From the UHGV virus genome UHGV-1336581: a stretch of DNA of 38,564 nt, one strand, 5' to 3'. Below are positions 19,062 to 38,500 of the stretch, piece by piece. The position numbers were made by a program, and so were the translations under genes. A model generated the notes under the pieces. The model was not told the origin of the DNA, did no database searches, and saw only the letters and a program-made list of their open reading frames with translations. The first letter of the stretch is position 1. Every line of letters starts with the position of its first letter. The stretch comes from a virus.

Positions 19062-19107
19062 ATTCGTAATGCGAAGGTCGTAGGTTCGACTCCTATTATC
19101 GGCACCA
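19062..19107 (+). other. 3' fragment of a tRNA-Thr gene (about 46 nt, ends ...GGTTCGACTCCTATTATCGGCACCA); attachment-site core
   Basis: T-arm GTAGG/TTCGACT/CCTAT, acceptor 3' strand and CCA present, anticodon-loop CGTAATG partly present, but no 5' acceptor strand (GCCGATA) upstream, so not an intact tRNA. Match to thrW is from memory. Confidence 0.6.
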
Positions 19108-19220
19108 TTCTAACGTCTCCCCAAGTCTACTCAAGTATTTAAAAACCTCTTATAATCCGCATGTTAGCGCCCCTTTTAGTCTTTTGACGTCTACTTAAGT
19201 ACCCCAAAATCTACAGTCAA

Positions 19221-19242
19221 TTGGGGGTACTTTTGGGGGTAT
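19221..19242 (+). repeat. TTGGGGGTACTTTTGGGGGTAT tandem motif (candidate integrase arm-type site)
   Basis: Identical 22-mer recurs at 38399-38420; inverted copies of TGGGGGTAC near 19197 and 19263 flank it; lies directly upstream of int. Confidence 0.5.
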
Positions 19243-19273
19243 TTGCTGTTCGGTTTAGTGGAGGTACCCCCAA

Positions 19274-20488
19274 GTGAAACTCAATGCCCGTCAAATAGAC
19301 ACTGCCAAGCCAAAAGAGAAGGCTTACAAGCTGGCTGATGGTGGTGGTCTGTATCTCCTGGTAAAACCTAGTGGAGGAAAATACTGGCGCTTTAAATATC
19401 GTGTAGCTGGTAAAGAGAAGCTGTTAGCACTAGGTGTGTATCCTGAAGTTACCTTGGCTGATGCTCGTGCAAAACGTGAAGAAGCTAAAAGGGGTATCGC
19501 TGGGGGTATCGATCCGATGGAAGCGAAACGAGAGGAAAAGATTGCCCGGGAAACGCAGTTAAACAATACCTTCAAAGATATTGCCCTTGAGTGGCACAGC
19601 AGCAAATTAAAAAAATGGTCTGCTGGTTATGCTTCAGATATCCTCGAAGCCTTCAACAAAGATGTGTTCCCTTACATTGGCAAAAAACCAATTGCCGAAA
19701 TCAAACCACTTGAACTTCTGAATGTGCTGCGACGCATCGAGGGGCGCGGTGCTACAGAAAAAGCCAAAAAAGTGAGGCAGCGGTGCGGGGAAGTTTTCCG
19801 CTATGCAATAGTCACTGGTCGCGCAGAGTATAACCCTGCCCCAGATCTTACTAGCGCGATGCAAGGCCATGAATCTAATCATTATCCTTTCCTCACAGCC
19901 AAAGAATTGCCTGATTTTTTCAAGGCATTGTCCAGTTACTCAGGAAGTGCATTGGTTGTTATGGCGGCTCGTCTACTGATTATCACTGGTTTGCGAACTG
20001 GCGAACTGCGCGGTGCATTATGGGATGAAATCGATCTCAACAAGGCTATCTGGGAGATACCTGCTTCACGGATGAAAATGCGTCGCCCTCATGTGGTGCC
20101 TTTGTCTAAGCAGGCTCTTTCTCTTATTGGGCAGATTAAAGAATTAACTGGTAATTATCCGCTTATGTTTCCCGGCCGTAATGATCCAAGGAAAACAATG
20201 AGCGAGGCTAGCATAAACCAAGTATTTAAACGCATCGGCTATAACGGAAAGGTTACTGGTCATGGATTCCGGCACACCATGAGCACGATTTTACATGAGC
20301 AGGGCTATAACACCGCGTGGATAGAAACGCAGCTTGCACACGTTGATAAGAACTCAATTCGTGGCACGTACAATCATGCGCAATATCTGGACGGGCGGCG
20401 CGAGATGCTCCAGTGGTACGCCGACTATATGGATTCGCTCGAACATGGCGGTAACGTGGTGCATGGCAAGTTCGGAAAATGTGGATGA
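19274..20488 (+). CDS. int: Tyrosine integrase, P4-type (N-terminal arm-binding domain)
   Basis: LNARQIDTAKPKEKAYKLADGGGLYLLVKPSGGKYWRFKYRVAGKEKLLALGVYPEVTLADARAKREEAK is the P4-integrase N-terminal signature; C-terminal HxxR...Y catalytic region (GHGFRHTMSTIL...HV...RGTYNH); GTG start, adjacent to the tRNA fragment. Confidence 0.9.
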   Translation: MKLNARQIDTAKPKEKAYKLADGGGLYLLVKPSGGKYWRFKYRVAGKEKLLALGVYPEVTLADARAKREEAKRGIAGGIDPMEAKREEKIARETQLNNTFKDIALEWHSSKLKKWSAGYASDILEAFNKDVFPYIGKKPIAEIKPLELLNVLRRIEGRGATEKAKKVRQRCGEVFRYAIVTGRAEYNPAPDLTSAMQGHESNHYPFLTAKELPDFFKALSSYSGSALVVMAARLLIITGLRTGELRGALWDEIDLNKAIWEIPASRMKMRRPHVVPLSKQALSLIGQIKELTGNYPLMFPGRNDPRKTMSEASINQVFKRIGYNGKVTGHGFRHTMSTILHEQGYNTAWIETQLAHVDKNSIRGTYNHAQYLDGRREMLQWYADYMDSLEHGGNVVHGKFGKCG

Positions 20489-20610
20489 CTGGTTGCGTAT
20501 ACAGTAGTAGACTTTGAGCGACGAAAGAAAAGGCTGTGTCTAGGGTCGCTCCCGAAAATCCGTACACCTCGACGGACTGGTACAGCCACTACAGTAGAGG
20601 ACGCTGAGGT

Positions 20611-21414
20611 GTGCGTATGATTGATATTCATGCCGAATTAAACGAATACAAAAAAGATTTTATTTCTTTACGTGAATTTCTTGAGGTCGTGCTTAAGGTC
20701 GCTGGTGATGATTATGATGTTTCAGATGTCATAACTTGGATACTCAGGAGAATAAGCGGAGAACATATCCGCCTGTACACAGTAAATGAATTTAAGCTGT
20801 TGGAATCTTTTTGTAACCCGTATCGGGATGAATTTGATTATGATGTTCTTTATAGAAATCTGAATGCGGTTCGGAAACGTGGTTGTTTACCTGGTGAGAG
20901 GGATGAAAATGGTTTTCTGGTGTCCGGTTATTGGGAAGATCCCGAATTTGAGAACATTGGATTTATAAGGGGTGAAATTTTCGCAATTTTTCCCGATGTC
21001 CTTGACGCGTTAACGAAGCTGGAAGGCGCTAACTCTTCTGAAAATGACGAGGCACAAGGACGCGATATTGAAAAGAAAGAGTTGCGTACAGAGGATGATT
21101 TATTATCCCAAATCGCAATGCTGGAAAAAGAAAACGCAGAGTTAAGGGCAAGGATAGAGCAGTTAGAGCAAGAGCGCCCGATACACTTATATAAATACTG
21201 GGATAAAGACCCATTAGCTAAGGCTATTGAGATTAGAAACAGAGAGTGGGCCAATTACGATCCAGAAAATGATTTTGCCACCAGGGGAAATCAAGAAGCG
21301 ATAACCAGGGAGCTTAAGCAGTGGGGGGCAAGTAATGCACTTGCAACGCTCATAGAGAGGACTGCCTGCCCTATTAACCGAGACAACAGCCAAAAGAACG
21401 CAAAGCCGGATTAA
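20611..21414 (+). CDS. Hypothetical protein (coiled-coil segment)
   Basis: 267-codon ORF between int and alpA with a heptad-like stretch (LSQIAMLEKENAELRARIEQLEQE); no family recognised. Confidence 0.5.
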   Translation: MRMIDIHAELNEYKKDFISLREFLEVVLKVAGDDYDVSDVITWILRRISGEHIRLYTVNEFKLLESFCNPYRDEFDYDVLYRNLNAVRKRGCLPGERDENGFLVSGYWEDPEFENIGFIRGEIFAIFPDVLDALTKLEGANSSENDEAQGRDIEKKELRTEDDLLSQIAMLEKENAELRARIEQLEQERPIHLYKYWDKDPLAKAIEIRNREWANYDPENDFATRGNQEAITRELKQWGASNALATLIERTACPINRDNSQKNAKPD

Positions 21415-21428
21415 CGCACCATACCGCA

Positions 21429-21572
21429 TACCCTGAGGGTGATTTACTGTTACCCTGAGGGTATTTTTTTATCTTCCCCGTCAATTTTACCATCACCCTT
21501 AGGGTAGATTTCCTCCCGATTACCATCACCCTTAGGGTTAATTTCCTTCCGGTAACCATTAGGCCTGAGGGT
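21429..21572. promoter_or_regulatory. Five copies of interrupted palindrome (A)CCCT(G/T)AGGG(T) upstream of alpA; candidate operator array
   Basis: TACCCTGAGGGT at about 21429 and 21451, CACCCTTAGGGT at about 21494 and 21527, GCCTGAGGGT at about 21562. Confidence 0.45.
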
Positions 21573-21641
21573 ATGAAAATATTCGTTATTTCTGTGCCAT
21601 GATTACCTCGTCAAATTGAGTAGACGTTATGAGGTAAATAT

Positions 21642-21839
21642 ATGTCAAATACGCTTATTCGTTTAACAGAAGTTCAGCGTAGAACTGGATATAGCAAGGC
21701 ATGGATTTATCACCTTATGGGGCAAGGTAAATTTCCTGCATCAGTTAAAATTGGCTCGCGAGCTATTGCTTTCGTTGAGAGTGAAATTGACGAGTGGATT
21801 AATCAGCGTATTGCGGAATCACGCGGAACAGCTACCTGA
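21642..21839 (+). CDS. alpA: AlpA-family transcriptional regulator
   Basis: 65-aa HTH protein, LIRLTEVQRRTGYSKAWIYHLMGQGKFPASVKIGSRAIAFVESEIDEWI matches the AlpA/prophage CP4-57 regulator family. Confidence 0.85.
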   Translation: MSNTLIRLTEVQRRTGYSKAWIYHLMGQGKFPASVKIGSRAIAFVESEIDEWINQRIAESRGTAT

Positions 21840-21916
21840 TTAAATGGCTACGGGGCTATTGCCCCCAGCTATCCACCAGCAAATAAAAGTAACTTAATTC
21901 GATAGCAGGAGTTTTT

Positions 21917-22717
21917 ATGAAATTTCCAAAAACGCCCGTACAGGGGCGGGGCTTCGTTCGGCCTGAAAACCAGAATCTGCAAAATTTCGGCGAAATTATC
22001 CCGATTATTTCCGGCGTTATTGGCGGGAGTGAAACCACTATTGTTAGCGCCAGAGCGTTACATAAGGCGTTAGGTGTAGGGCGCGTTTTCCGTTCGTGGA
22101 TCAAGGGGCGCATTGAAGAATACGGGTTCACGGAAGGCGTGGATTATGAGGTTGTTGAATATTTGAGCCGACCCGATCCGGTGAGCGCAAAATCTCGCCA
22201 GCAAACCGCTCTTGAGTACATCATCACAGTGAACATGGCGAAAGAACTGGCGATGGTCGAACGTACCGAACAGGGCCGCGCCGTTCGCCAGTACTTTATC
22301 AAATGCGAGGAGGAGCTACACAAGGTTGCGCCTGTTCGTTCCGCAGCGTTACGCCGGGAACTGAAAGCCCGTATCACAGTTGCCAGCTACTTTAAGCCAA
22401 TGTGTGCCGCGCTGGAGGCGTACCGGGCTGAACTGGGTAAAAACACACTCCAGCACCACTACACCACGGAAGCGAGCATGCTGGCGCGTATCGTGCTGGG
22501 TGGCATGACTGCAAAACAGTGGGCACTGGCGAACGGCATTACAGGCGAACCACGCGACCACATGAGCACGTTGCAGCTTGAGCACCTTTCTTACCTTGAG
22601 CAGAGCAATATCACGCTGATTGAGTTAGGCCAGGACTACCACCAGCGGAAGGCTGAATTAATTCGTCTTTCGCAGCGTTGGTTAGCCCGTCGCATGGAGG
22701 AAAACAGCCATGTGTAA
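21917..22717 (+). CDS. Phage antirepressor-like DNA-binding protein (Ant/Rha/KilA-N-type N-terminal domain)
   Basis: N-terminal TIVSARALHKALGVGRVFRSWIKGRIEEYGFTEGVDYEV resembles antirepressor-type DNA-binding domains; domain assignment is tentative. Confidence 0.45.
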   Translation: MKFPKTPVQGRGFVRPENQNLQNFGEIIPIISGVIGGSETTIVSARALHKALGVGRVFRSWIKGRIEEYGFTEGVDYEVVEYLSRPDPVSAKSRQQTALEYIITVNMAKELAMVERTEQGRAVRQYFIKCEEELHKVAPVRSAALRRELKARITVASYFKPMCAALEAYRAELGKNTLQHHYTTEASMLARIVLGGMTAKQWALANGITGEPRDHMSTLQLEHLSYLEQSNITLIELGQDYHQRKAELIRLSQRWLARRMEENSHV

Positions 22718-23430
22718 CGCTCTGACCGTTACAAAAAGAGAAAGCGCCCCGTTGCCGGAGCGCCTTTGTGAACGAATAGCCTACTGCGCCATATTGCTTA
22801 CTGTCTACGAGGCAGATTATAGCGTTGTGGTCGCACAGAGTGAAGGCGCTGATCACCGTTACTACAGCACGCCAGAAATGCAGAATATTTTGCTGCAAAA
22901 TGTCGTTGATCACACTGTCCGAAAAGCAAAAAATTTTGCTGGTGGCGCGACTGATGCGATTTTGTCAGGTCGCCAGGTGCTGATCAATCTGATGTCTGAT
23001 TTCGTTCTGGATAAAACAAAGGCGACCGCAGAGGGCCGCCAGTGGGAAAGCTACATACTTGAACGCATCGCCAACAATGCCAGATTTGCGGCTGGTGGGC
23101 AATGTGTCAGCTTTGCACCAATGACTCTATGTTTAACTGAGGGTCATTATGGTGAATATGCTGGCTTGCTGGTGGGCTATTCCTGCTCTTTAACATCGCC
23201 ATGCCGCGATGTTTTCCAGGTATGCGATCCCATTTTTGTGCGCCTGTACTCTTTAAGGAATTTCTCAAGGATAAACGCACAGGGCGCGAATCTGTTTGAC
23301 TCATGCTCGTACGCTATCTTTCTGCGCTGTCTTTTCCGTGCCGGTGATGGTGTATTGGTTGATTCTTTGTTGGTCATGGCGCTGCCCTGTAAAACGATGC
23401 ACCGTAGTCCCTCACACCACGGCGCTGGTG
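22710..23430 (+). CDS. Hypothetical protein, probably disrupted (5' part of a 485-codon open frame)
   Basis: First ~150 codons look protein-like; downstream the same frame becomes Cys/Ser/Arg-rich and runs through a convergent minus-strand gene and a divergent promoter region without a stop. End coordinate is arbitrary. Confidence 0.3.
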
Positions 23431-23434
23431 ATGG

Positions 23435-23614
23435 TTACTCCTGTTCTTTGGCCTTGCGGCGCTGGCGGCGTTTGATCTCGCCTTTTGCAGCAGTAACTAA
23501 AAAACCAGCGGTACTTTCGCCAGGTTCTTTAAGTTGCTCAATATCATCCATTACTTCATGTGGGATTCTGACAGTTGTCATTTGTGATTTTGCGTTCTTT
23601 GCACCAGTTGCCAT
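23435..23614 (-). CDS. Small ribbon-helix-helix-like DNA-binding protein
   Basis: MATGAKNAKSQMTTVRIPHEVMDDIEQLKEPGESTAGFLVTAAKGEIKRRQRRKAKEQE has a beta-strand/helix pattern like CopG/Arc; divergent from the gene starting at 23802. Confidence 0.4.
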   Translation of the reverse strand: MATGAKNAKSQMTTVRIPHEVMDDIEQLKEPGESTAGFLVTAAKGEIKRRQRRKAKEQE

Positions 23615-23801
23615 TTCTGGATCTCCTAAAAATTGGTGTATGTCAGTATACGCAAAAAAAATGATAAAAAAAGGCTTGAAGTGTATTTCACCAGTAAGTA
23701 AATTAAAAAGCAAAGGTGAAATACACCTAAAAGAGCAACGCCCCGCAGTGCTCGCAACACATGCAGGGCGTCTAACCAAACCGTTAAATGAGGTAACGAT
23801 T

Positions 23802-24167
23802 ATGGCTGGAACACAGCATACTCAAACTCACCCTAAATTTATATACACCTTCCTGGCGGTGCACCGTGATTGCATGGCTGACGGTAAAAACACTGTACAC
23901 GTAGCCGCCGATACGCTGGTTGATGCCTGCAAGATGCTCAATGACATGGGCTATATCTCGGCAACATGGAAAGGGCGCGAAGAAAACACGCTGTTTATTC
24001 AGAAATGCGAAAACAATTTTATATGGCGTTTTATCGCCCTGAGTACGGCACAACCGCGCGTGATTCACATCGAGGCCACCAGCGAACAGGAAGCACGCCA
24101 GCAATCTCCTGATGGCTGCGTGATGGTATTCACTGCCCGTATTCGCCAGGAGGTGGAGCATGTGTAA
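23802..24167 (+). CDS. Hypothetical protein
   Basis: Internal ATG of the long open frame, preceded by GAGGTAACGATT (RBS-like) and a divergent AT-rich promoter region; 122 codons; stop overlaps next start. Confidence 0.5.
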   Translation: MAGTQHTQTHPKFIYTFLAVHRDCMADGKNTVHVAADTLVDACKMLNDMGYISATWKGREENTLFIQKCENNFIWRFIALSTAQPRVIHIEATSEQEARQQSPDGCVMVFTARIRQEVEHV

Positions 24168-24384
24168 TGCAACATGGCCTGATGCAGCGGTAGACACTAT
24201 CAAAACGCTGATGGATTCACTTATTGAGATTTCTGCTATCGCTGGTGTGGCGCATAAACACGCAGCCAGAGAATCAGAATGCATCTTCCATTATTTAGCA
24301 TTTGTGCAGCTAAAAGCCGATCAGGCACTGGATAAGGCCGGAAAAATTATCATGGCTGATGTGCAGGAGGTGCACTATGCATAA
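24160..24384 (+). CDS. Hypothetical small protein
   Basis: 74 codons, start overlaps upstream stop, stop overlaps downstream start. Confidence 0.45.
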   Translation: MCNATWPDAAVDTIKTLMDSLIEISAIAGVAHKHAARESECIFHYLAFVQLKADQALDKAGKIIMADVQEVHYA

Positions 24385-25165: not shown

Positions 25166-25456
25166 ATGAAAAAGAAAAATTCTGGCTTTACTGCCAGCGG
25201 TCTCTCTCGGCCTGAAATCAGACACGGAGATATTTACCGCGACACCAGACGTGGGGGACGAGTGGTTATTCGTCACGTTACGCCAGGCAATATCACCTAC
25301 CGCCGTGAGGCTTACGAATATGACTGCGTAATGCCGCGCCGTCAGTTTGAGCGTGATTTTATTCTGGTTGAAAACAAACAACAGGCGGTGGCGAGACGTG
25401 CAGCCACGAATATTAAAAAAATCCGGGCAATGTTGGTTGCGGGAGGTAAGAAGTGA
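25166..25456 (+). CDS. Hypothetical small basic protein
   Basis: 96 codons; stop overlaps the start of the helicase-like gene. Confidence 0.45.
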   Translation: MKKKNSGFTASGLSRPEIRHGDIYRDTRRGGRVVIRHVTPGNITYRREAYEYDCVMPRRQFERDFILVENKQQAVARRAATNIKKIRAMLVAGGKK

Positions 25457-26865
25457 AAAACGCACCGAATTTAAAATATCAGCCGAAGGATAAATTCACC
25501 GAGGTAATCATTTTTGCCGGGACGGATGCTTACGCCCATGCTCAACACTGGATTGAAAGCGAAGGACGAAAACACGGCGATAACGTACCACCTGTTTACC
25601 TGGGGCCAAAGCAACTGGCAGACCTGGCGAATATCCGCATTGTCGACGATGAACGCCGCTTTGCGCGTGTCTATCTCGCGGGGGAGATCGAACCAATCCA
25701 GATCAATGCTATCGCTGAAAAGCTGGCGCTGGCTGGCGTACAGGAGGCGAAATTATACAAAGGTATCACCGACGGGGAGCCGGAGAACTGGCACGACTAC
25801 CTGCAACGGATCCGCGAACAGGCTGAGCGCGGGGAAATACTTACTGACGAGCAATACAGCCAGCGAAAAACCACGCTACCAATGAGCATTGGATCGGAAG
25901 GATATGATTCACAGCTTAGCTATGTAGTTAAGGGCGTGATTCCGGCTAATTCGCTATGTAGCACATACGGTGCGAGCGGTTCTTATAAGTCGTTCCTTGC
26001 GTGTTCGTGGGCGTGTCATGTTGCTACCGGTATCCCGTGGGGAGGTCGCAGGGTTGTACATGGTGCGGTGATGTATGTCGTTGGTGAGGGCGGGATCGGT
26101 GTTCCTCGTCGTATCAAGGCATGGGAACTGGTGAACAGTGAGCAGGTGAAAAATCTATACCTGGTAAATCGTCCAATTTTTCCGGCCGCACCGGGTGATG
26201 TTGATGAAATGGTTATTGCTGCCCGACAGGTTGAGCAGGAAACGGGTAAACCTGTACGCATGATTATTCTGGATACTCTGGCGCGTTGCTTTGGTGGCAG
26301 CGATGAAAATGATGCGCGGGATATGGGGGCATTTGTCCATGGATGTGACGAACTGAAACGACGTACAGGCGCTACAGTGCTGGTAATTCACCATTCCGGC
26401 AAGGATGAAACAAAGGGTGCGCGCGGTTCCAGTGCGTTTCGTGCAGCACTGGATGCAGAATACCGGATACGCCGTGAAGGTGCAGGCAGTGAAGCCCTGG
26501 TTATCGCATGTACCAAGATGAAGGATGCGGAGGAACTGAAAGAAATGGCTTGCGATTTGCGCGAGGTTGAGCTTTTCAAGGATGAGGGCGGGGAGTTAAT
26601 CACGTCGCTGGTGCTGGAGGATAAGCCCCGTCCGCCGGTTGAACTGGAGCGCATCGAGGAAGCTGGGAACAAGACGGAGAATCACGCCGCACTATGGGGT
26701 TGTATTCGTTCACGCACGCAACGCGGAGATAAATGTACTATTCCGTTGTTGCGCGATGACATGAAAAAGCTGGGGTATGAGATGAAAAACTTCCGGCGCT
26801 GGCTGTACAAGCTGGAAGGTGACGGCGTAATCGCTATTGACGGTGATGATGTGCGCCCACTGTAA
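25453..26865 (+). CDS. RecA-fold AAA ATPase, replicative helicase-like (RepA/DnaB-type)
   Basis: Walker A GASGSYKS, Walker B-like MIILDTLARCFGG, and VIHHSGKDETKGARGSSA typical of RepA/AAA_25-type helicase-ATPases of integrative elements. Confidence 0.7.
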   Translation: MKNAPNLKYQPKDKFTEVIIFAGTDAYAHAQHWIESEGRKHGDNVPPVYLGPKQLADLANIRIVDDERRFARVYLAGEIEPIQINAIAEKLALAGVQEAKLYKGITDGEPENWHDYLQRIREQAERGEILTDEQYSQRKTTLPMSIGSEGYDSQLSYVVKGVIPANSLCSTYGASGSYKSFLACSWACHVATGIPWGGRRVVHGAVMYVVGEGGIGVPRRIKAWELVNSEQVKNLYLVNRPIFPAAPGDVDEMVIAARQVEQETGKPVRMIILDTLARCFGGSDENDARDMGAFVHGCDELKRRTGATVLVIHHSGKDETKGARGSSAFRAALDAEYRIRREGAGSEALVIACTKMKDAEELKEMACDLREVELFKDEGGELITSLVLEDKPRPPVELERIEEAGNKTENHAALWGCIRSRTQRGDKCTIPLLRDDMKKLGYEMKNFRRWLYKLEGDGVIAIDGDDVRPL

Positions 26866-27266
26866 AAAGTGAAGCGTAAAAGTGAGGGGGGAAGGGAATA
26901 TTTAAAAATCATCCCTGTTTTCCTCACTTTCTCACCTGTATATAGATCAAAAAATGAGGAATTAAAAAAACATTGCAAAACAACATATTACAACAATAAA
27001 GAAAACGACTGAGGAGCAGAACAAGAATAACAAAAAGTGAGGAACAAAAGTGAGGAATGGTGAGTTAATAGAAATGAGGTAATAAAAATAACAGGTAGGT
27101 TAAAAAACATACCATGCAAGATATTAACTAAAACTTAACTATTTACCTCACTTTTGCGTATATATAAGGATTAAAAAGTGAGTGCTTAAAAATATATTTA
27201 AAATCATATTGTTATTAACTTCATAAATTCTCACTGCGCAGCAGGTGAGGAATTAAAAAATCAGGA
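26866..27266. repeat. AT-rich iteron region (many copies of AGTGAGG / TGAGGAA in both orientations); candidate replication origin
   Basis: Repeated AAAGTGAGG(G/A/T), GGTGAGGAATT, AATGAGGAATT, and inverted CCTCACTTT within about 400 bp directly downstream of the helicase-like gene. Confidence 0.4.
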
Positions 27267-27917
27267 ATGTTAAAAATGAAAACAGAACGTTACATACCTC
27301 AGGGTATGACTTACATAGAGCGTGAAGAGCTGAAAAGTTTTGCGACATCATGTGGACTATGCGGCGATATTCACCGCTTTACCAGAACTCTGATCATGAT
27401 TGCGCACTGGATGCGACAGGGACAGAGCGTAAGTTTTACAGAATATGCCGGGCGGTGGTTGTGGCCACGAATAATACGCCGATGATTTTTACCGAACACG
27501 CCGGAAGCGTTGCCCGTCGCCGTGTTATTTTCCAGTTTAACTGTCGCGTCAGTGAGGAAGATAAGGACCCCGGAAAAAGAGCGGGCGCTGCTGCTGAGGA
27601 AACGGAACAGCAAAGAGGCACTGGAGGTAAAGCTGTACGCCTTCTGTGACCACCTGAAGCGGCTAGCTGATTGCGTGGGAATGCTGGTGGATTATGCCGG
27701 TAAGGTTGCTGCGCCAAATACTCAGATGGATGCTTTATTCTGCGGCATGGTCGGCGAACTGACTAACCTACGCGTCATGGCGCAGCGGGCAGAAGTAGAG
27801 GCAGAATTGCTTGACGTTATCCGCAACGATCCGGATTTTAACGAACAGGCAAAAAACCGCAGAGCGGGTGGAATCTGGACACGCTTAAATCCTTTACTCG
27901 TGGTGTGTCTGCCGTAA
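27267..27917 (+). pseudogene. Decayed P4-alpha/D5-type primase-helicase C-terminal remnant (fragments in three frames)
   Basis: Three overlapping partial ORFs in different frames; one carries VVVATNNTPMIFTEHAGSVARRRVIFQFN, resembling the conserved C-terminal motif of D5/P4-alpha helicases. Tentative. Confidence 0.35.
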
Positions 27918-28304
27918 GCAAGCAGACTGCAAACATTCTCGATTATCTGATGAACAGATTCTCACCGGTTAAACCACTGGCATCTGATGATGTTCAGGCA
28001 TTCGGTAGGTTCGAGCGCAGCAGTCAGGAAAATGCTGCTGTCGATGTACAGCGGAAAGTAGCAGGAACTGTCTGATGCATTACTACGGGCTCCTGGACTC
28101 GATATGGAGCAGCTGAAACGTCTCGCATTTTCACGAATCATGTCTGAGAACGGGCAGGTTATTAGTGCAGTTGCCGCTCTTAAAACATGACTTAGCTTGA
28201 GAACGAATCAACAAGTTAGAGAAAAATCACCCCTAACAGCTTAAAATTTACATAAAAAGACTTTGACTTCTTATAATTGCTGCTATTATCAGCATAAGAA
28301 AAAT

Positions 28305-28334
28305 AAAACCTCGCCAGACAGCGGGGTTTTTCTG
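28305..28334 (+). terminator. Rho-independent terminator
   Basis: AAAACCTCGC-CAGACA-GCGGGGTTTT hairpin (10-bp stem, one mismatch) followed by a T run. Confidence 0.5.
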
Positions 28335-28408
28335 TCTAAAAAGAACTATAAAAACAACATGTAGTGTCGAAGCATTGACGCAAGCACTACATTTAGCGGA
28401 GTACTAAC

Positions 28409-28633
28409 ATGGCTGAAATCAATTACGAAAAAATTCTCTTGGAAACGGGACTTGTGGCATCAAATACTTCAGGTATCCAGTTCCCACAACAATTTGGCGC
28501 AATGAGCCATGAGTTCGGCGGCTTAAGCGGTGTTGCAAGTTTTTCTCATCAACATGAGATGACTAAGCTTAAGTGTTCTACCAGAACAACTGGCTACTCA
28601 ACTTTGCATGTAAGCACCACTACAAAAGCTTAA
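28409..28633 (+). CDS. Hypothetical small protein (upstream partner of the protease gene)
   Basis: 74 codons, 18-nt gap before the protease gene; no family recognised. Confidence 0.4.
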   Translation: MAEINYEKILLETGLVASNTSGIQFPQQFGAMSHEFGGLSGVASFSHQHEMTKLKCSTRTTGYSTLHVSTTTKA

Positions 28634-28651
28634 CAAGGACGTTACCATCCC

Positions 28652-29548
28652 ATGCCCAATCTGGCCCAAGTCTTGGAGGAAATCCAAAGCCTCCAAGACG
28701 ATTCTCGCTTTGATATTGTCCGCCGTAAATACATAAAAGCTTTGAGCGACAGTACTGATAGAAACGTAATATGTTACTACACAGACTTTTTACATAACGG
28801 TAATCATCAGCATGTCAGCATCAATGATGATGACAAAAATGGTTTCATGGCTGTTGTTAACGGAATGGATAGAACGAAAGGCTTAGACCTTTTCTTGCAT
28901 ACCCCTGGTGGTTCTATAACTGCGGCTGAGTCTCTGGTTTACTACCTTAAAAAGCTTTTTAATGGTGATATTCGGGCCATTGTTCCTCAAATGAGCATGT
29001 CTGCAGGAACAATGATTGCGTGTGCCTGCAAAGAAATTGTAATGGGGCATCATTCAAGTATCGGACCTTTTGATCCTCATATCTTTGGTGGTCTTTCAGC
29101 TTATGGTATTTTGGAAGAGTTAAAAAATGCTATTGATAGCATTCAAAAAGAACCTTCCAGCCTCCCGATTTGGCAAACAATCATCTCGCGCTACCCACCT
29201 ACCATTTTTGATACAGCTAGCAAAGCTATTCAGCTTGCCGATGATTTGGTTACTGAATGGTTAAAAAATGGAATGCTTAAAGATTTACCTGAACCTCGGC
29301 GTAGCGAACTCGCCACTGCGATTGTCAAAAGCTTAAACAATCGTACGGATACGAAGGATCATTCTCGGCATATCCACGCAGAGAGAGCCATTGAATTAGG
29401 TTTGCGGATCACTCAGCTTGAAGACCATCCCCAGTTTCAGGACGCAGTTCTTACAGTACATCACTGTTGTACACAAACCCTTTTCAACACTCCTACAGTT
29501 AAGCTTATTGAAGGCTCTAATAACCAATCCTTTATTCGGCATATCTAA
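28652..29548 (+). CDS. SDH-family / ClpP-SppA-like Clp-fold serine protease
   Basis: [20 protein letters not shown] and [19 protein letters not shown] resemble the catalytic-serine region of ClpP/S49-type peptidases. Confidence 0.6.
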
Positions 29549-29866
29549 AAGTTTGGGGGTACTTAAGCGCCCCCTTCTCGATTATGCGTAAAATAATATT
29601 AATAATTAATCACTTACATAGTGCAAGCCATGTCATGTATGAATCGAAAAACTGAAACTCATTGTTAACTTAGATTATCATCGGTACTTTCGATAAAGTT
29701 ATCCGGGGTCATCATAACTCTTTATGTGAAGTATCCCCAATATAACCTCATAATTTAACTTATTGTAGTGTATGTATTTTTATTATTTAAATATCAATTG
29801 TTTTGTTGAGATGCAAGCGGCTCGCCAAAACCGTTTTGATATTTATTGCCCGGTTAGATCGGCTTT

Positions 29867-30180
29867 CTAGGACAACAGATCACGTACCCGGTTTGCCGTC
29901 CAGTCCGGGATATGCTCAATGACGTAACGCAACCATTTTTCTGGCTCCTCCTTGTTCAGACGGCACGTGCCGATCAGCAAGTACAGCACCGCAGTATGTT
30001 CGCCACCGCTGTTGGAACCTGCGAACAACCAGTTTTTCCGGCCCACTGCCACACCACGTTAGGCGTTTTCGGCGATGTTTTTGTCGATTTCCACCCAGCC
30101 ATTATTGCAGTATACGTTCAGCGCATCTATATGAATGCATCCCGTTTCGTAGTTTTGACGTTGATGGTAGATGAAAGTAC
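29867..30180 (-). mobile_element. IS66-family transposase 3' remnant (frameshifted C-terminal ~100 codons only)
   Basis: Minus-strand translation gives ...ALNVYCNNGWVEIDKNIAENA and, after a frameshift, VGRKNWLFAGSNSGGEHTAVLYLLIGTCRLNKEEPEKWLRYV, matching the conserved IS66 TnpC C-terminus; no N-terminal transposase sequence. Confidence 0.6.
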
Positions 30181-30749
30181 CGGGCATGAAACAATCAGTA
30201 AAAACGATGGGGCAAAGCATGACTAAGCTGACCATTAACAGAAAACCGAAAGGCATTTACGGCACGCCGCAGAAAACGACGCAGGCGGCACAGGAGCAGG
30301 ATAAAACCCCATCGGCGCATAAAGTGATGCTCGGTAACCAGAAAGCGCAGCAGAAGCTCACAGGGGCGACATCGTGGCGGCATATGACCAAACGCCAGCG
30401 CAAAAATCGCAGGCGCGTTAACCGCCTTACTGAGTTGTGGCCTGAATTATTCAACCGGGAAGCACCGAAGCCGCTTAAGGTGGGAATATTTGACGACCTG
30501 ATGCAGAATCTCGCCGTCAGGGGGCTGGCATTCGGGCCAGGGGCATTACGTGCGACGCTGGCATCTTATGCGCAGTGTCCGCGCTATTACCGCGCCTTAA
30601 TGGCTGGTGGGGTACGCTACGACCTGAAAGGCCAGCCGTGCGGCGAGGTGACACCACAGGAACAACAGGACGCAGAAACGCGGCTGGTGGCGCTGAATGA
30701 GAAGCGCAAACGTCAGCGCCGGGCAGCAAAGGAGAAAACAGGCGCATGA
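30171..30749 (+). CDS. FinO/ProQ-family RNA chaperone-like protein
   Basis: WPELFNREAPKPLKVGIFDDLMQ and ALRATLASYAQCPRYYRALMAGGVRYDLKGQPCGEV match the ProQ/FinO domain; real start probably an internal Met, since the 5' end overlaps the IS66 remnant. Confidence 0.65.
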   Translation: MKVPGMKQSVKTMGQSMTKLTINRKPKGIYGTPQKTTQAAQEQDKTPSAHKVMLGNQKAQQKLTGATSWRHMTKRQRKNRRRVNRLTELWPELFNREAPKPLKVGIFDDLMQNLAVRGLAFGPGALRATLASYAQCPRYYRALMAGGVRYDLKGQPCGEVTPQEQQDAETRLVALNEKRKRQRRAAKEKTGA

Positions 30750-31033
30750 TTCACGACAGCAAAGCGGAAGCACTGGAAGCGCGTGGTCTGTACCGGAGAG
30801 CGGCGGCTCGGTGGGCTGAGGTCATCATGCTGGCGAATGATGACAAGGCACGGGAACAGGCGGCAAAACGTCGCGCGGAATGTATCCACAAGGCAGCACG
30901 CCCACCAGCAAGGCAGGATAATTTCGGGGAGATGCGCAAAACCATCAGCCGGGCACATGTCGGGATGGGATTACATCAGCCCAATGGTGAGGCATTCAGG
31001 AAATACCAAAAAAAGAACAATTGTAGTCAGTAA
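30746..31033 (+). CDS. PerC-like transcriptional activator family protein
   Basis: DSKAEALEARGLYRRAAARWAEVIM resembles the PerC N-terminal signature; ATGA overlap with the upstream gene. Confidence 0.5.
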   Translation: MIHDSKAEALEARGLYRRAAARWAEVIMLANDDKAREQAAKRRAECIHKAARPPARQDNFGEMRKTISRAHVGMGLHQPNGEAFRKYQKKNNCSQ

Positions 31034-31167: not shown

Positions 31168-32310
31168 ATGAATAAAACTTTAATTGCAACATTAGTCGGT
31201 ATAGTAATGTTAACCGGATGTGGGCCAGAAGAGTTAACTCCAGAACAGAAACAGGAAGTAGCGGCTCTTAAAGCTGAACTGTCGCAAACGGAAGGTGAAA
31301 TATCAGCAGCTAAGGAAGTTGACCAGCAGTTTTCTGGTGGGTTGATAAAAAATCTGACAACAGCAAGACTGGAAATATTAGGAACTAATAAAGCGCTTTT
31401 GGAACAGCGTATTAATGCTATTGAATCAGGCGCCAAAATTGATGTTGTTGTATCTGGAGTAAAACCTGATCCTGAGCTTGCGGCTTCAATTAAAACTGAA
31501 ATTGACAGCTTAGATGCAAAAATCAACGAAGCCAAAGCTGATGCTCGTCAGTATAGTGGTGGTCTGATAAAGGTACTAAAATTATCTACTGTTGCCACTG
31601 AAGAGCAGACCATGGCAATGTTGCAGCAAAAGTACCTCACAGCCAAGTATGGCCTCGCTGAAGTTAAGCTGGCATCAGTACAAGATAATGACGCAAAAAA
31701 CAGTACTGAAACGGAAGTAACAGCCAAAAATTCCCAAGAGCAACTTCCTTTACTCCCGCCAGCGGATGGTCCGTTTGGCTTAGAAGCCGGTCTTACACAG
31801 AAAAACATCGAAGATATGATCGGTGCTAAGCTCAAGCCACTACCAGACAGTGTGAATCTGTATACTTCTGATAAATTACCGAAGCAAAACGCAGATTTTG
31901 AAATGTATGGTTTGTTGATCTCCCCGAAAGCTGGTTTATGTCAAATACGGGCTTTAGGAAAAAATATTGATACTGATAGCTATGGATTGGCTCTTAAATC
32001 CAAGTTTGAAGAATTGAGTAATTCTTTAAGTTCTCTGTATGGAAAGGCTGATACTACAGACTTTTTGCTGGCTGGTTCAATTTGGAAAGATCCTCAGGAC
32101 TGGATGAGGGGGCTAAACAAAAAAGAACGCTTCTTATCTGCCACATGGAAGGGAACAAAAGAAATACCATTAAAAAACAATATTGATACTATATATATTG
32201 AGGCCAGAGCGAACAATTCCACTCAGGGATATGTCTATTTGCAGTACTCATTTGCAAATGACGAAATTTGTCAGGCAGAAATTGAAGGGGCGAAAAAAAG
32301 TTCCCTTTAA
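31168..32310 (+). CDS. Lipoprotein of unknown function
   Basis: Signal peptide with lipobox (LVGIVMLTGCG); 380 aa with internally repeated segments (QQFSGGLIKNL / RQYSGGLIKVL). Confidence 0.6.
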   Translation: MNKTLIATLVGIVMLTGCGPEELTPEQKQEVAALKAELSQTEGEISAAKEVDQQFSGGLIKNLTTARLEILGTNKALLEQRINAIESGAKIDVVVSGVKPDPELAASIKTEIDSLDAKINEAKADARQYSGGLIKVLKLSTVATEEQTMAMLQQKYLTAKYGLAEVKLASVQDNDAKNSTETEVTAKNSQEQLPLLPPADGPFGLEAGLTQKNIEDMIGAKLKPLPDSVNLYTSDKLPKQNADFEMYGLLISPKAGLCQIRALGKNIDTDSYGLALKSKFEELSNSLSSLYGKADTTDFLLAGSIWKDPQDWMRGLNKKERFLSATWKGTKEIPLKNNIDTIYIEARANNSTQGYVYLQYSFANDEICQAEIEGAKKSSL

Positions 32311-33422: not shown

Positions 33423-33427
33423 ATCAG

Positions 33428-33452
33428 TAAGGGGCGGTTATTGCCCCTTTCC
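33428..33452 (+). terminator. Rho-independent terminator
   Basis: AAGGGGC-GGTTATT-GCCCCTTT hairpin immediately after the stop codon. Confidence 0.5.
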
Positions 33453-33504
33453 TCCATACCCACAACGCATTCCCTTTCCGCATGAAATTATTTTTTTATC
33501 GTAT

Positions 33505-34050
33505 ATGCATGAGGTGAGCTACATGTTGATGAGTAAAGCCGAATACGCCAAATACAAAGGCGTAAGCCGCCAGACAGTTTACGACTGGATCGAGAAAGGC
33601 GAAGTGATCATGTCTGGCAAAAAAATTGATGTGGATGCGACAGATCAGCGGAACAGCCCACCAGCACAGGGGAAAGACACCGTTTCTGAAATGTGGCCAG
33701 AGAGAACGCTGGAAATGACGTGGGGCGAGTTCTGGAAAGCAGTTAAGGCCAGAGACGGTAAAATCCCTGCGCCAGTAACGGACGATGACATACGGCAGCG
33801 TGTGCTGAATGCAGCCGGGGAATTAGGCTGGGAAGTGCACTTTCTTGATGATGGTGCTATCTGCCTTGAGGATGATGAAGGACAGCATTACTTTGAACAA
33901 TACAATTTGCGGGGTAATGCCTGGCTGGCAATTCATATGCTGCGTTGTGAACTATGCTATGTTGCCAGCGATTGTCCCGATGAACAGGACACATGGAGTG
34001 AGGCAGGACTAAACGCCCTGGCTGAATGGGAAAAATCAGGCCATCAATGA
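33505..34050 (+). CDS. HTH DNA-binding protein (N-terminal MerR/terminase-small-subunit-like helix-turn-helix)
   Basis: SKAEYAKYKGVSRQTVYDWIEKGEV is a classic HTH; the rest is acidic and unassigned. Confidence 0.5.
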   Translation: MHEVSYMLMSKAEYAKYKGVSRQTVYDWIEKGEVIMSGKKIDVDATDQRNSPPAQGKDTVSEMWPERTLEMTWGEFWKAVKARDGKIPAPVTDDDIRQRVLNAAGELGWEVHFLDDGAICLEDDEGQHYFEQYNLRGNAWLAIHMLRCELCYVASDCPDEQDTWSEAGLNALAEWEKSGHQ

Positions 34051-34054
34051 CCTC

Positions 34055-34330
34055 AAAAAGTGTCAAGTTGAGCAGCTTGCCAGGTTGACACTTTACACTC
34101 TGAACGCGAAAAAGTGTCAACCTTGCTGGAAGCCGCGCCATTACTGGCCTTGTACCATATTCACCACGTCAAAAAACCGAAAAAATCGCGAAAAGTGTCA
34201 AGTTGCCATGCTTAGAAATGCCAGGGATGGTTAAGTTTTGTTAAGGTTTTTCCCGAAAAAGTGTCAAGTGTGTCAATCTGCGATATTAAGATTTATTAAG
34301 GTCTTAAGCCGGAAAGTGTCAACCAGCCCC
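34055..34330. repeat. Array of at least six AAAGTGTCAA(G/C) repeats interleaved with TTAAG-type motifs (candidate binding-site array)
   Basis: Copies near 34055, 34108, 34190, 34255, 34312, plus an inverted copy (TTGACACTTT) near 34084; each later copy is followed by TTAAG(T/A)TTT...TAAGGT. Confidence 0.5.
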
Positions 34331-34443
34331 CTAAGATTTCCTAAGGTGTGATTGAACGTGCTGTAACCTTCTTGTCGCAATGTGGATGAATGACTATAGT
34401 GCTGGTAACTTTGACAGCAGAATCAGATTACTGAAGGAAATGT

Positions 34444-35028: not shown

Positions 35029-35294
35029 TCCATTGTATTGAACTTATTAATTGGATATGAGTGCTGATAGGAAACCTATGACCATCACCGAAGCCGATAT
35101 GCTGGAGATGATCCGCAGCATTGCCGGAATCAAACAACCAGCAAGCAAAATTAACAGGTGTTCAGCGCCTGTTTCCGTTGTGCTGCAACAGGAACGCCAC
35201 CAGCGGCGGGAAAACGAAAAGGCGTACCAATGGACGAAGCCAAACAAGTTACGGCGTTAATTAGGGATGCGGGCTGGGATAGCCCGCATTTTGC

Positions 35295-35552
35295 TCACAG
35301 CTTGTTATAAATTTTTCCAGCGAAGTCATGAACCGCCTGAGGAATATCCGACGGCGTACCTAGCATTGTCGGCGCATCGGAAACAAAGAACATGATCGCT
35401 TCTTTGATTTCTTCGAAAGATGGGGTAGGGGTAATGCGCTTGAGATTTGAAACAGCCCGTCGGAACTCCGCCGTATCCATTGGATGCCTGCTAAACCACG
35501 TTGGACTAGAAGCCCAACATTTTACTGCTTCTTTCACCTTAGTGTTCATCAT
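35295..35552 (-). CDS. Hypothetical small protein
   Basis: 85-codon minus-strand ORF with ordinary composition; no family recognised. Confidence 0.3.
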   Translation of the reverse strand: MMNTKVKEAVKCWASSPTWFSRHPMDTAEFRRAVSNLKRITPTPSFEEIKEAIMFFVSDAPTMLGTPSDIPQAVHDFAGKIYNKL

Positions 35553-36108
35553 TTTTCCTTTTGCTTATTACCATACAAAGCATGTGGAAAGAGAAGATTA
35601 ACATGGAAAATATGGGGTTGGTGAGCAAATGGTACTGGTAGCCCGTCGACATCTATCAGCATGATGATGTGAGGCCGTATAGTAAGCCAACAGCCAAGCC
35701 AAACATTAAGCCTAAGGGTAGGGCTTTTTTGTGGCTGGTGGCGTAATGCCAACATTGTTACATGATGTTTTGAGGTATTATCTGCATGTTCGTGGTGAGG
35801 AACCACCAGAACTGATGAGCTTTTGTTTATGCATGTACTGCATGAAAACTGTCCTATAAAGTGGGGGTAGGTGTGCTGAGGAGAACATTGTGAGCTACGC
35901 CAAATTAAATTGTGTCGGGGGTGAACAAGTTTCTTGATAGGTATCAGTAGGCACCTATAGTTATAGGCTTCTTCAATTTTGTGTGCACAATATTTTGTAT
36001 TGATTGGGGATAGGGTTGCACGCAAAATTAAAAAATGTATATTTATTAACGTGTATTTGATAATTTTTAAATAAAATATTTCTCTATGTTTATCATAAAA
36101 GGTTTTTT

Positions 36109-37707
36109 ATGAGCGTGGCAATAAAAACAATGACACCAGTGTCATATTCTATAAAAGTTGATGCGATTAAGAAAAGATTATCATATTTTAGTGATGTTTC
36201 TTTTTTGAGAAATTTTTATGAACACTTCCAAAAAGTAAGGGATGTCGAGGTGGGTATTGTTTCCAATTTCCCTTGGTGTTGCTATCTGGCAATGAAATGG
36301 AAGTTTTGCATGAAGGAAAAAAAGCCTGCAAAAGAAATGAGTAAAAATGATTTTATTGATATTATCAACTTAATCTATAACTTGCAACTAGAAGCATCTA
36401 ATTTAATCGTTGATGATAAAGTTATGCTAAGCCTTAGACGAATGGTGATAAATCAGTTGCTTTATCAATCAACTGATAAATTTAATGCCAATTCATTAAC
36501 AAGACAGTATATTTGGTATTGCTTGAATGATGAATCATATTATAAAGATAAGTTTTTAGAATGTACTGGTTTACATTTGGAAAGCTATTACAAAATGGCA
36601 TGTTATTTTACCGCTATTTCATGTATTAATCCTGATATAGAATCAGAGGTTATTCCATTTAAACACTTGATAATAAACTTGGTTCCGATATTTGGTCCGG
36701 AACAAGTGAAAAGATTTTTGGAATTAACATGCTTAAAAATTGATGGTGTGAGAGATTTTATTGCCCCATATAAATTGGATAAAAACATTACCGCTGAGTA
36801 TTATGAAGATACACCATTCCTCAGTAAACCAATGTTTTTAGATGGCGATGGTGTAGTGATATTATGCAAAAGAATCATGAAGTCAGGGTTTGTCAACCTA
36901 GTTCCAGAATTGTTCAAGCAGGTCTATAAGGAATCTTATAAAGAAAAATTTGGTAAGACGATGGAACTTTATATTTCTCGCTTTCTTGATAAGTACAATT
37001 ATAACTTTAAGACTGAAAGTGAGGTTAAGAAGATTTATAGTGATAATGCAATAAAAAATTGCAAGTCCGTAGATTTTGTTATTTCAGAGGGAGATTCAAT
37101 AGTTTATATTGACTCGAAGGCAATAGAGCCTGCAAAGTTCGTTAAAACATCTAATAATGCTCAGTTGCTAAAGGAAAGGTTGAATAAGAGTTTTATTAAA
37201 GGGATTTATCAAGGTCAGGAATGTGCTTTTAACTTAAATAAAATAGAGATGAGAAAACCATCTTCGAAAGATTCAATGTTAATTGTGGTGCATCGGGATC
37301 ATCATATATCAAATGCAATGCTTGTGCAGGATTTTATTAACCCTGATTTATCAACTGAGTTATCTGAAAAATATCATAGTATCCCCATTGATCTAAAAAG
37401 AATTTACTATATAACAATTGATGAGTTCGAATTATTACTTATGATGTGTAAACAGAAAGAACTATCTATTAATGAGTTTATTGATATGTGTGTGGAAAAA
37501 GATTCATTCCCTCATACTCAGAAGTCTAATCTAAGCATGCACATATATGAATTTGCACCAGAGGGTATTGATGATGATCAATTGATTGTAAAAGGAAGAG
37601 ACTTACTGATTGATGATGTTATTGAAAATATGAAAGAGAGTGCATCAAAATGGTCTGGGAAAGTTGATATGTATCTTAAAATAAAAGATTATATTTTTAA
37701 TTGGTAA
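36109..37707 (+). CDS. Large hypothetical protein (AT-rich cargo); possible PD-(D/E)xK nuclease core
   Basis: 532-codon ORF in a very AT-rich block with an AT-rich upstream region; central SVDFVISEGDSIVYIDSKAIE fits an hhhD...(D/E)xK pattern. The nuclease assignment is an inference only. Confidence 0.55.
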   Translation: MSVAIKTMTPVSYSIKVDAIKKRLSYFSDVSFLRNFYEHFQKVRDVEVGIVSNFPWCCYLAMKWKFCMKEKKPAKEMSKNDFIDIINLIYNLQLEASNLIVDDKVMLSLRRMVINQLLYQSTDKFNANSLTRQYIWYCLNDESYYKDKFLECTGLHLESYYKMACYFTAISCINPDIESEVIPFKHLIINLVPIFGPEQVKRFLELTCLKIDGVRDFIAPYKLDKNITAEYYEDTPFLSKPMFLDGDGVVILCKRIMKSGFVNLVPELFKQVYKESYKEKFGKTMELYISRFLDKYNYNFKTESEVKKIYSDNAIKNCKSVDFVISEGDSIVYIDSKAIEPAKFVKTSNNAQLLKERLNKSFIKGIYQGQECAFNLNKIEMRKPSSKDSMLIVVHRDHHISNAMLVQDFINPDLSTELSEKYHSIPIDLKRIYYITIDEFELLLMMCKQKELSINEFIDMCVEKDSFPHTQKSNLSMHIYEFAPEGIDDDQLIVKGRDLLIDDVIENMKESASKWSGKVDMYLKIKDYIFNW

Positions 37708-38398
37708 TTAAGCAAGGGTGTTATTATCAACACCCTTGCTCATAGTCTTACAATATTAAATGTTGTGTTTTTTATTTATATATTTTATTGCCCATCAAGC
37801 TATTAATTCATCTCGTTGTTTGAGATAGGTTGAGCATTTGTATTTTTTTATCAATTTTATCTGTATGAGCTTAAGCAGCTTCAATAATATCTGCGTTAAA
37901 TTACGCTTCATTCAGAGACGTGCTTGCTATTGACATGTAATCCATGTGCAACAAGATTCCTGCCATAACTTATGCGTTTCAGAGCCGAATCATGGACTGC
38001 TTTAAGTCATTTTTGTAGGGAAAACATGTTCACATGTCAGCACTGATTTGTTTCATCATATCCACTATCTCGAATTTCTGTGTCGATAGATGAATGCAGA
38101 CGGAAATATGTGAATTTTGTGCACGCTCTGCTATTAAGCGAAAACGAGCGTGGGTATATCAACTAATAATTGCCCTCATTAACATAGGTGGTGGCGGGTA
38201 TAATCTCTGTAACCCAGTTGTTCGTGACTACCTACCTCGTCAAATTTTCACACCCGCGAAATAAAAAATACTTCACGCTAGTGGTTATCCTTGGGCATCC
38301 ACCAGCCCTTCATCATTGCCAGCCTGTGAGGCTGAGGCTCGAAGAAAAAGAGTGCTAGATAGTCGATTTTTGCCTGGTTTGGGATAAGGGAAAATTTA

Positions 38399-38420
38399 TT
38401 GGGGGTACTTTTGGGGGTAT
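38399..38420 (+). repeat. TTGGGGGTACTTTTGGGGGTAT, second copy (candidate integrase arm-type site at the distal island end)
   Basis: Exact 22-mer also at 19221-19242. Confidence 0.5.
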
Positions 38421-38480
38421 CTATAAAAATGAAATATGAAAATGTCATTAAATATCAATGTATTTGTTGTTTATGTTTTG

Positions 38481-38500
38481 TTCCTATTATCGCACCATTT
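38481..38500 (+). other. Degenerate copy of the tRNA 3' att core (TCCTATTATCG-CACCATT)
   Basis: Matches TCCTATTATCGGCACCATT at 19091-19109 with one missing G; no tRNA body upstream. Confidence 0.5.

Follow-up and report, generated by a model that had tools for sequence, protein, structure and literature searches.

Why would a genomic island that is inserted next to a tRNA gene end in a copy of the tRNA terminus that lacks one base? This question is raised by the virus genome UHGV-1336581 (38,564 nucleotides, hereafter the window), in which a partial tRNA gene separates prophage genes from a segment of about 19.4 kb that starts with an integrase gene and ends in an imperfect repeat of the tRNA end. 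An initial annotation, made from the sequence of the window, had proposed two elements inserted successively into the same tRNA gene, the right-hand one being the older and its distal core having started to decay. The comparisons presented here indicate that the region is very probably a tandem array at the Escherichia coli thrW gene, made up of a defective prophage followed by a 19.39-kb island that resembles phage-inducible chromosomal islands (PICIs), and that the single G of the distal core is a feature of the island attP.

Two elements at the thrW gene

The partial tRNA gene at 19062-19107 (+; ATTCGTAATGCGAAGGTCGTAGGTTCGACTCCTATTATCGGCACCA) is identical at all 46 positions to nucleotides 31-76 of the K-12 thrW gene (b0244, tRNA-Thr CGU). 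The identity breaks off at exactly 46 nt and the DNA upstream is unrelated, so the window holds a 3' fragment without its 5' half, as the initial annotation had described; ARAGORN called no tRNA in the whole window, and no intact tRNA overlaps the fragment. The imperfect repeat lies at 38482-38499 (+; TCCTATTATCG-CACCATT). Its alignment with 19091-19109 (+; TCCTATTATCGGCACCATT) gives 18 identical bases and one missing G, which agrees with the one-base-deleted copy of about 19 nt first noticed near 38481-38500. The distal 18-mer occurs once in the window when up to two mismatches are allowed and was not found in 100 shuffled sequences; between 19110 and 38481, no core-like sequence was found even with four errors allowed. 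The island unit measures 19,390 nt, from about 19102/19110 to 38492/38499, and the boundaries originally given (about 19062-38500) were right to within a few bases. The DNA to the right of 38499 (38500-38564, +) matches what follows the CP4-6 attR in K-12 as well as the flank of the empty site in EC23HZZ201; it is the native chromosomal flank downstream of thrW, toward yagP'/paoD.

The displaced thrW 3' end is the junction between the two tandem elements suspected at a tRNA-Thr site: it forms the attR core of the prophage and also holds the attL core of the island. The two elements nevertheless differ in the part of thrW that they share. The phage-type identity runs from the last base of the 5' strand of the anticodon stem, just before the loop, to the CCA (46 nt), whereas the island-type identity covers only the last ~19 nt of the gene. 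The same 46-nt fragment is joined to several different phage arms in the viral collection. The prophage integrase would have recombined in the anticodon loop with 46 nt of identity, and the right end of the prophage would thus carry the displaced thrW 3' end, while the intact thrW restored by the integration is expected some 7-8 kb left of the window.

Complete E. coli genomes show four states of this site, all with the same flanks: empty, phage only, island only and both. They include the genomes lacking one or both elements with which a comparison had originally been proposed. The empty site of EC23HZZ201 has the order proA, thrW, yagP'. At the phage-only sites of ETEC1749 and WCHEC025943, the 46-nt fragment stands between the same phage arm and the native flank. 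In UTAK-5, which has the island only, an intact thrW is directly followed by an island that is 99.97% identical to that of the window over 10.8 kb, with one extra IS1, and the alignment begins exactly at position 19062. Both elements are present in APEC20/16 and EC20. The APEC20/16 island is 99.8% identical to the window island and the prophage to its left is related to that of the window; the genes are arranged as proA, intact thrW, phage int (372 residues, oriented toward the tRNA), prophage, fragment, island int...gapS1, core and yagP'-paoDCBA. This order agrees with the expectation of an intact tRNA to the left of the window, although the site itself falls outside it. The junction of proA, thrW and island occurs in 728 genomes, and that of phage arm, fragment and island in 185. 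Some 3,800 genomes matching the right end were also considered as carriers of a degenerate core, but this reading was dropped, as most of them match only from the core into the chromosomal flank, and individual loci were sampled instead.

thrW is a recognised integration hotspot (PMC7545054). The two-element layout at this gene is common and already known, and near-identical islands are already present in RefSeq genomes. The cryptic prophage CP4-6 of K-12 occupies the same tRNA gene and has the same right flank (yagP'/paoD) as the array in the window. The window prophage shares with it the long class of core starting in the anticodon loop, whereas the island differs from it in two respects: CP4-6 has a 49-nt repeat with GG, and its intF is tRNA-distal and reversed, while the island int is on the tRNA side. 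Other occupants of thrW include P22/SfV-type phages and pathogenicity islands.

The integrase and the missing base

The first gene of the island (19274-20488, +) encodes a P4-family tyrosine integrase of 404 residues with Arm-DNA-bind_3 (PF13356), Phage_int_M and Phage_integrase domains, 43% identical to the P4 integrase over its full length (E 2e-117) and with the same three-domain layout. A repeat search and the comparison with the P4 attP identified arm-type sites of the form TTGGGGGTA(C/T). Four of them are on the int side, at 19199-19208 (-), 19221-19230 (+), 19233-19242 (+) and 19264-19273 (-), the last one abutting the GTG start codon of int. Two more lie in tandem near the distal end, at 38399-38408 (TTGGGGGTAC) and 38411-38420 (TTGGGGGTAT), both on the + strand. 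The two ends share a perfect 23-nt direct repeat (ATTGGGGGTACTTTTGGGGGTAT; 19220-19242 and 38398-38420), and the motif TGGGGGTA occurs 8 times for 0.74 occurrences expected. The occupancy of the site in all four states, together with a related 12.9-kb circular contig, indirectly supports the ability of the integrase to excise and integrate at these sites.

The P4-type assignment made at the outset extends to the attachment site. P4 (NC_001609) and the island share the arm motif GGGGG(C/T)A (GGGGGCA in P4) and its arrangement, with a tandem pair of arms on either side of the core and another arm, inverted, at the start codon of int. The distance between the core and the int-side arms is also almost the same (112 nt in P4 and 111 nt in the island). 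Both cores coincide with the 3' terminus of a tRNA gene, which ends in ...TCGGCACCA, and the sequences after the CCA are similar (TTCTTAC against TTCTAAC). The tRNA-end surroundings of the P4 attP (region 3900-4200) and of the island attP also look alike (TCGGCACCATTCTTAC and TCG(G)CACCATTCTAAC, respectively). P4 differs in its target, leuX instead of thrW, and in its core, which has GG and reproduces the tRNA end perfectly over 20 nt, where the island family usually has one G fewer. The comparison suggests that, for the target to switch from leuX to thrW, only sequence 5' of the shared GCACCAT had to change.

Is the missing G a sign of decay? If the distal core had lost a base by degeneration, the island would be the older insertion, on its way to fixation and immobility. 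One base is indeed absent from the distal copy, and other data could be read in the same way: UTAK-5 lacks the phage but has the island, the element farthest from the tRNA is frequently degenerate in arrays of the same family (its int is truncated at residue 112; L034, L106), and the change from GG to G was seen once, in a non-functional phage fragment (L013/L027). In order to evaluate how the core varies among relatives, one genome per species was scanned for TTCCTATTATCG(N)CACCATT. The 30 matches are island right ends, and a pair of arm-type repeats accompanies each of them, at -80 and -68 (±3 nt) relative to the core. A single G is present in 24 of these 30 ends and GG in the other six. The single-G ends span about a dozen enterobacterial genera, including Atlantibacter, Pseudescherichia, Leclercia, Citrobacter, Cedecea, Kluyvera, Pseudocitrobacter, Enterobacter, Buttiauxella, Scandinavium and Phytobacter, and the right-hand neighbours of the 30 ends vary, being either the genus-native flank or another island, joined by its left end. 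Among the E. coli islands, five distinct right arms (with arm motifs GGGGGTA, GGGGGCA or GTGTATAG) all have a single G, on either allele of the native flank. Conversely, GG is found on the same flank in the phage attR, in another element (O103 RM8385) and in the empty site. In the tandem arrays (L008/L102, L034, L103, L105, L106), thrW has GG and each examined junction between an island right end and an island left end has a single G.

These observations are difficult to reconcile with decay. The single G recurs in different genera next to unrelated right flanks, in five E. coli islands and in junctions between islands that have no chromosomal right partner, while the same flank allele has GG when its left partner is a phage; an independent and identical decay on such a scale is implausible. 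In addition, int, alpA, repA and both sets of arm sites are intact in the window. An older island undergoing fixation through the decay of its core is thus highly improbable, and this part of the initial annotation does not hold. Judging from the aligned ends, the single-G core is instead a conserved feature of the island family that is carried by the element. It is therefore uninformative on the age or the immobility of the island.

The state of the G run follows the island right arm and not the chromosome; therefore, strand exchange would take place 3' of this run. All that attL and attR have in common in arrays L102 and L106 is GCACCAT, which corresponds to 19102-19108 (+) in the window. 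Seven nucleotides is the usual overlap length of tyrosine integrases. We infer from these alignments that the crossover occurs within GCACCAT, that is, within the last two bases of the acceptor stem, the discriminator base, the CCA and one flanking base. In that case, attL would retain the chromosomal GG because the exchange lies 3' of it, attR would receive the tRNA-like block of the island itself, with one G in most members of the family, and thrW would be left intact without the island supplying any tRNA sequence. The junction of the excised circle would read GTTTTGTTCCTATTATCGCACCATTCTAACGTCTCCCC, with a single G, and the healed site GGTTCGACTCCTATTATCGGCACCATTTAAATCAAGTAG, with GG. What is mildly new is limited to the family-wide one-base offset that separates attP from attB and to the position of the crossover that follows from it.

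Several observations weigh against this interpretation of the array. The intact thrW is outside the window and its presence rests on related genomes. A circular attP with a single G was not recovered: the scan of viral sequences gave tandem arrays and one circle with GG, and the scan of metagenomes gave six tandem arrays and no circle. The sole circular contig (L040; 12.9 kb, with a 77-nt terminal overlap and an integrase 92% identical to that of the island) is the one with GG, and its right arm has no match in complete E. coli genomes. Two IMG/VR contigs, L013 (12863) and L027 (11652), have the phage-type 46-nt thrW fragment with a single G, followed by an island remnant with int truncated at residue 112. 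The crossover model does not predict this case, which may result from a secondary deletion or from an occasional exchange further 5'; either GG can also become G in a tRNA-derived copy or the exchange can sometimes be displaced. Moreover, measured from the overlap, the tRNA-like block of the island and the attB arm are one G out of register, an offset that a simple core-binding model fails to explain. Finally, no capsid, packaging or helper-hijack genes were identified by a capsid comparison or by the Pfam and PHROG scans, which covered 20 island open reading frames (ORFs) and left out the smallest ones, and the size of the island (19.4 kb) is above that of typical PICIs.

The attP block that is one base shorter could be more than a tolerated accident, namely a selected design feature of the thrW-specific branch of P4-type integrases. 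We hold this idea as a tentative and rather doubtful one. If it were true, the offset might bias the directionality of the reaction; attR might be a poor target, so that newcomers would always enter at thrW and arrays would grow in order; and the RecA-mediated or slippage deletion between the flanking repeats might be suppressed.

Gene content and likeness to phage satellites

The layout of the island is that of Gram-negative PICIs: int at one end, a single direction of transcription, alpA, a replication module and no phage structural or lysis genes. Transcription in one direction has been described in these islands, among which EcCICFT073 has been studied experimentally (Fillol-Salom et al. 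2018, PMC6092414). Phages use the same thrW gene with another core, of the 46-nt anticodon-loop class instead of the 3'-end class. The island resembles a Gram-negative PICI-type phage satellite, and its gene content suggests the corresponding behaviour. Its probable life cycle can be modelled on EcCICFT073: a helper phage would turn on alpA; the integrase would excise the island through recombination between attL and attR; RepA would replicate the excised circle; and the helper would package it, which would allow its entry into the thrW gene of a new host. Present-day mobility, helper dependence, the replication origin and the position of the crossover are all inferred.

The genes that follow int support this comparison. 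An int-alpA RNA motif (Rfam RF02996, 45.5 bits for a gathering score of 35.8) is found at 20533-20600 (+) and precedes the gene of an AlpA-family regulator or excisionase (21642-21839, +; PF05930, E 7e-19), 35% identical to the AlpA of EcCICFT073 and located in the same position. Next come an AntA/AntB anti-repressor-like protein (21917-22717, +; PF08346, phrog_5817), a YlcI/YnfO protein (23435-23614, -) and an Icd-like division inhibitor (23802-24167, +; NF033153); the last two are annotated by PGAP in near-identical islands and have homologues in EcCICFT073. A mechanically called ORF of 485 residues at 22710-24167 is probably not a gene, as only its last ~50 residues, the Icd-like ones, have homologues and PGAP calls smaller genes. 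The replication module (25166-26865, +), recognised by Pfam and PHROG matches, consists of a DUF4222 protein and a RepA/AAA_25 replicative helicase whose 130 N-terminal residues are 46% identical to the primase of EcCICFT073. Just past the repA stop codon, an AT-rich stretch contains a cluster of AARTGAGG iterons in both orientations (26880-27153): seven of the 12 matches in the window fall within these 274 nt, while 2.75 are expected for the whole window. By its repeats, this region is likely the iteron-type replication origin of the island. Further downstream, 30171-31033 (+) encodes a ProQ/FinO-family protein (PF04352) and a PerC-family activator (PF06069), the latter 51% identical to the PerC of EcCICFT073. 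A 181-residue protein (33505-34050, +) has an N-terminal helix-turn-helix that is weakly similar to small terminases or excisionases (phrog_57, E 6e-7; HTH_17), and a packaging role for it would be speculation.

Three other sequences of this part of the island deserve mention. A 33-nt unit (TTACCATCACCCTTAGGGTAAATTTCCTCCCGA) is repeated in 2.2 tandem copies at 21487-21559, about 85 nt upstream of alpA, and may be a regulator binding site. Just downstream of the gene for the 181-residue protein, the region 34056-34322 holds three copies of AAAAGTGTCAAGTTG and two 37-nt repeats, which could be an operator or a packaging site. An ORF of 380 residues (31168-32310) occupies the position of the EcCICFT073 capsid gene; its sequence shows a lipoprotein signal (LTGC) and, at the N-terminus, a coiled-coil-like stretch, and it is frameshifted in APEC20/16. 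It was considered as a capsid candidate and rejected: it has a lipobox and no family matches, and neither the EcCICFT073 capsid nor any PDB sequence is similar to it.

The likeness to EcCICFT073 extends to the general organisation, with int at the left end, one-way transcription and accessory or defence cargo in the distal part. The homologues appear in the same order: AlpA (35% identity), a small reverse-strand ORF (67%), YlcI (51%), the Icd-like protein (73%), small ORFs, DUF4222 (52%), the N-terminus of the replication protein (46%) and PerC (51%). Nevertheless, the integrases are only 25% identical, EcCICFT073 is inserted between roxA and phoQ and measures about 11 kb, compared with 19.4 kb, it has a primase in place of the RepA/AAA_25 helicase, and its capsid and decoration genes have no counterpart in the island. 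The EC20 island is a variant that has a DUF5906 primase in place of RepA/AAA_25.

Since the integrase is related to that of P4, a P4-like satellite has to be considered as well. These satellites are defined by seven core components, including the integrase, AlpA, Psu, Delta, Sid, alpha and epsilon (de Sousa et al. 2023, PMC10085698). The integrase and AlpA are present in the island, but the capsid-hijack genes, alpha and epsilon are not: P4 sid, delta, psu, epsilon (Ash) and alpha have no homologue among the scanned ORFs. On this gene content, the island is not a P4-like satellite.

One may also wonder whether the 19.4-kb segment is a single element. It could be the fusion of two former tandem islands, or an immobile genomic island with nothing but an integrase module left. 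The size above that of typical PICIs and the lack of a recognised hijack module would fit such a view, as would an additional arm-like site (TTTGGGGGTACTTAAG, 29552-29567) midway along the island, beside an IS66 remnant. Yet there is one int and one pair of cores, with no internal core, and the backbone (int, alpA, Icd, DUF4222, rep, PerC) is continuous, as in EcCICFT073 and the EC20 island. The stretch from 26866 to 30170 behaves as a simple 3.3-kb insert, and there is no right-arm collinearity around 29552. A composite or immobile segment consequently seems very unlikely, and we continue to regard it as one island. The lone TTTGGGGGTACTTAAG site directly follows the Clp-protease gene, is an inverted copy of 19194-19209 and adjoins the IS66-family remnant (29867-30127); the extra IS1 of UTAK-5 is at about 29880. 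An earlier island end may have left this site behind, although its surroundings show no collinear similarity to the island right arm.

The accessory cargo comprises two notable genes. The 3.3-kb insert, which the EC20 island lacks, contains with the IS66 remnant an SDH-type serine protease of the ClpP fold (28652-29548, +; PF01972). At the distal end, within a cargo segment of 30% GC, lies the gene of a 532-residue protein of the GapS1 anti-phage family (36109-37707, +; NF047931, 441.6 bits for a curated cut-off of 320), which PGAP names gapS1. PADLOC gave no match for the island cargo, and no PADLOC 2023 model matches the GapS1 protein; by its family assignment, this protein is predicted anti-phage cargo of the island. 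The GAPS1 anti-phage system was described in Vibrio GMT islands (bioRxiv 10.1101/2023.03.28.534373), whereas here the putative member is the distal cargo of an enterobacterial satellite-like island.

A degenerate remnant of an island is widespread at the tRNA-distal position of E. coli thrW arrays (L034, L104-L106, L007, L013, L027). Its int is cut after about 112 residues (91% identical), and RefSeq labels the product 'Arm DNA-binding domain-containing protein'.

The prophage and the order of arrival

According to its domain matches and its identity to the APEC20/16 prophage, the left half of the window (1-19061) is the right-hand part of a defective prophage integrated in thrW. It contains, in order, early genes and a Q region (1-2974), a low-GC moron, holin and lysozyme (4726-5532), DNA-circularisation and baseplate genes, tail-fibre genes, an invertase and defence cargo; KilA-N, DUF968, resolvase and KAP NTPase domains were recognised. 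The identity to the APEC20/16 prophage is 97% at 1-2613, 90% at 4502-5507 and 97% at 5564-10766. About 14 kb of that prophage are absent between 5507 and 5564, where the lysozyme gene (5056-5532) runs directly into the DNA-circularisation genes. The absent genes are those for Rz, HNH, terminase, portal, protease, capsid, sheath, tube and tape measure, and with these terminase, head and tail genes missing the prophage is defective. The moron (3204-4354, 29-30% GC) is located between the Q antiterminator and the holin, where APEC20/16 has other genes; it encodes a 175-residue ORF without matches and a 214-residue protein with a transglycosylase domain (PF00912). Near the attachment site, the defence cargo (13520-17311, -) consists of a 778-residue PifA-like KAP P-loop NTPase (PADLOC PifA, E 7e-79) and a 274-residue PD-T4-3/LEM-3-like GIY-YIG protein (E 7e-140). 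Going by these family matches, both thrW elements carry anti-phage genes.

The phage-side arm of the attachment site (18786-19061, +) is common to different prophages integrated in thrW. This arm of about 276 nt also precedes the fragment in EC20, whose prophage has a lambda-like tail, in APEC20/16, whose prophage has a sheathed tail, and at the phage-only sites L096 and L097; it is 90% identical to phage phi458 over 97% of the query.

Which of the two elements came first? The final arrangement is silent on this point because the two integrases, which are unrelated, use different parts of thrW. A phage arriving second could use only the intact thrW and would end up beside the tRNA gene. An island arriving second would give the same order, provided that its integrase accepts the displaced fragment. 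The prophage could thus have come first, the island then entering the displaced 46-nt fragment with its native flank and not the rebuilt thrW. GCACCAT and the native flank are fully preserved in the phage attR (L096, L097), the resulting arrangement would be identical, and phage-only sites exist as possible targets. However, UTAK-5 has a 99.97% identical island directly at thrW and no phage, the island at thrW is four times commoner than the phage-island junction (728 and 185 genomes), and the prophages beside near-identical islands differ, with a sheathed tail in APEC20/16 and a lambda-like one in EC20, which suggests repeated phage arrivals. None of these arguments is decisive, but they make a prior arrival of the prophage unlikely. 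The population data mildly favour an island that was resident first, although the loss of the phage would give the same picture.

The locus is ordinary biology of a well-known kind. At the practical level, exact limits can be given for the island, whose ends do not warrant annotation as degenerate; more generally, an imperfect distal repeat at a tRNA-associated island is in itself no evidence of age or immobility. The genes for GapS1 and for the PifA-like and PD-T4-3 proteins illustrate once more that mobile elements at an established hotspot can carry defence functions. For this widespread P4-type integrase with thrW as its target, the region of strand exchange would be narrowed to GCACCAT, and two integrases acting on different parts of one tRNA gene would produce the same order, with the phage beside the tRNA and the satellite distal to it, probably whichever of them arrived first.

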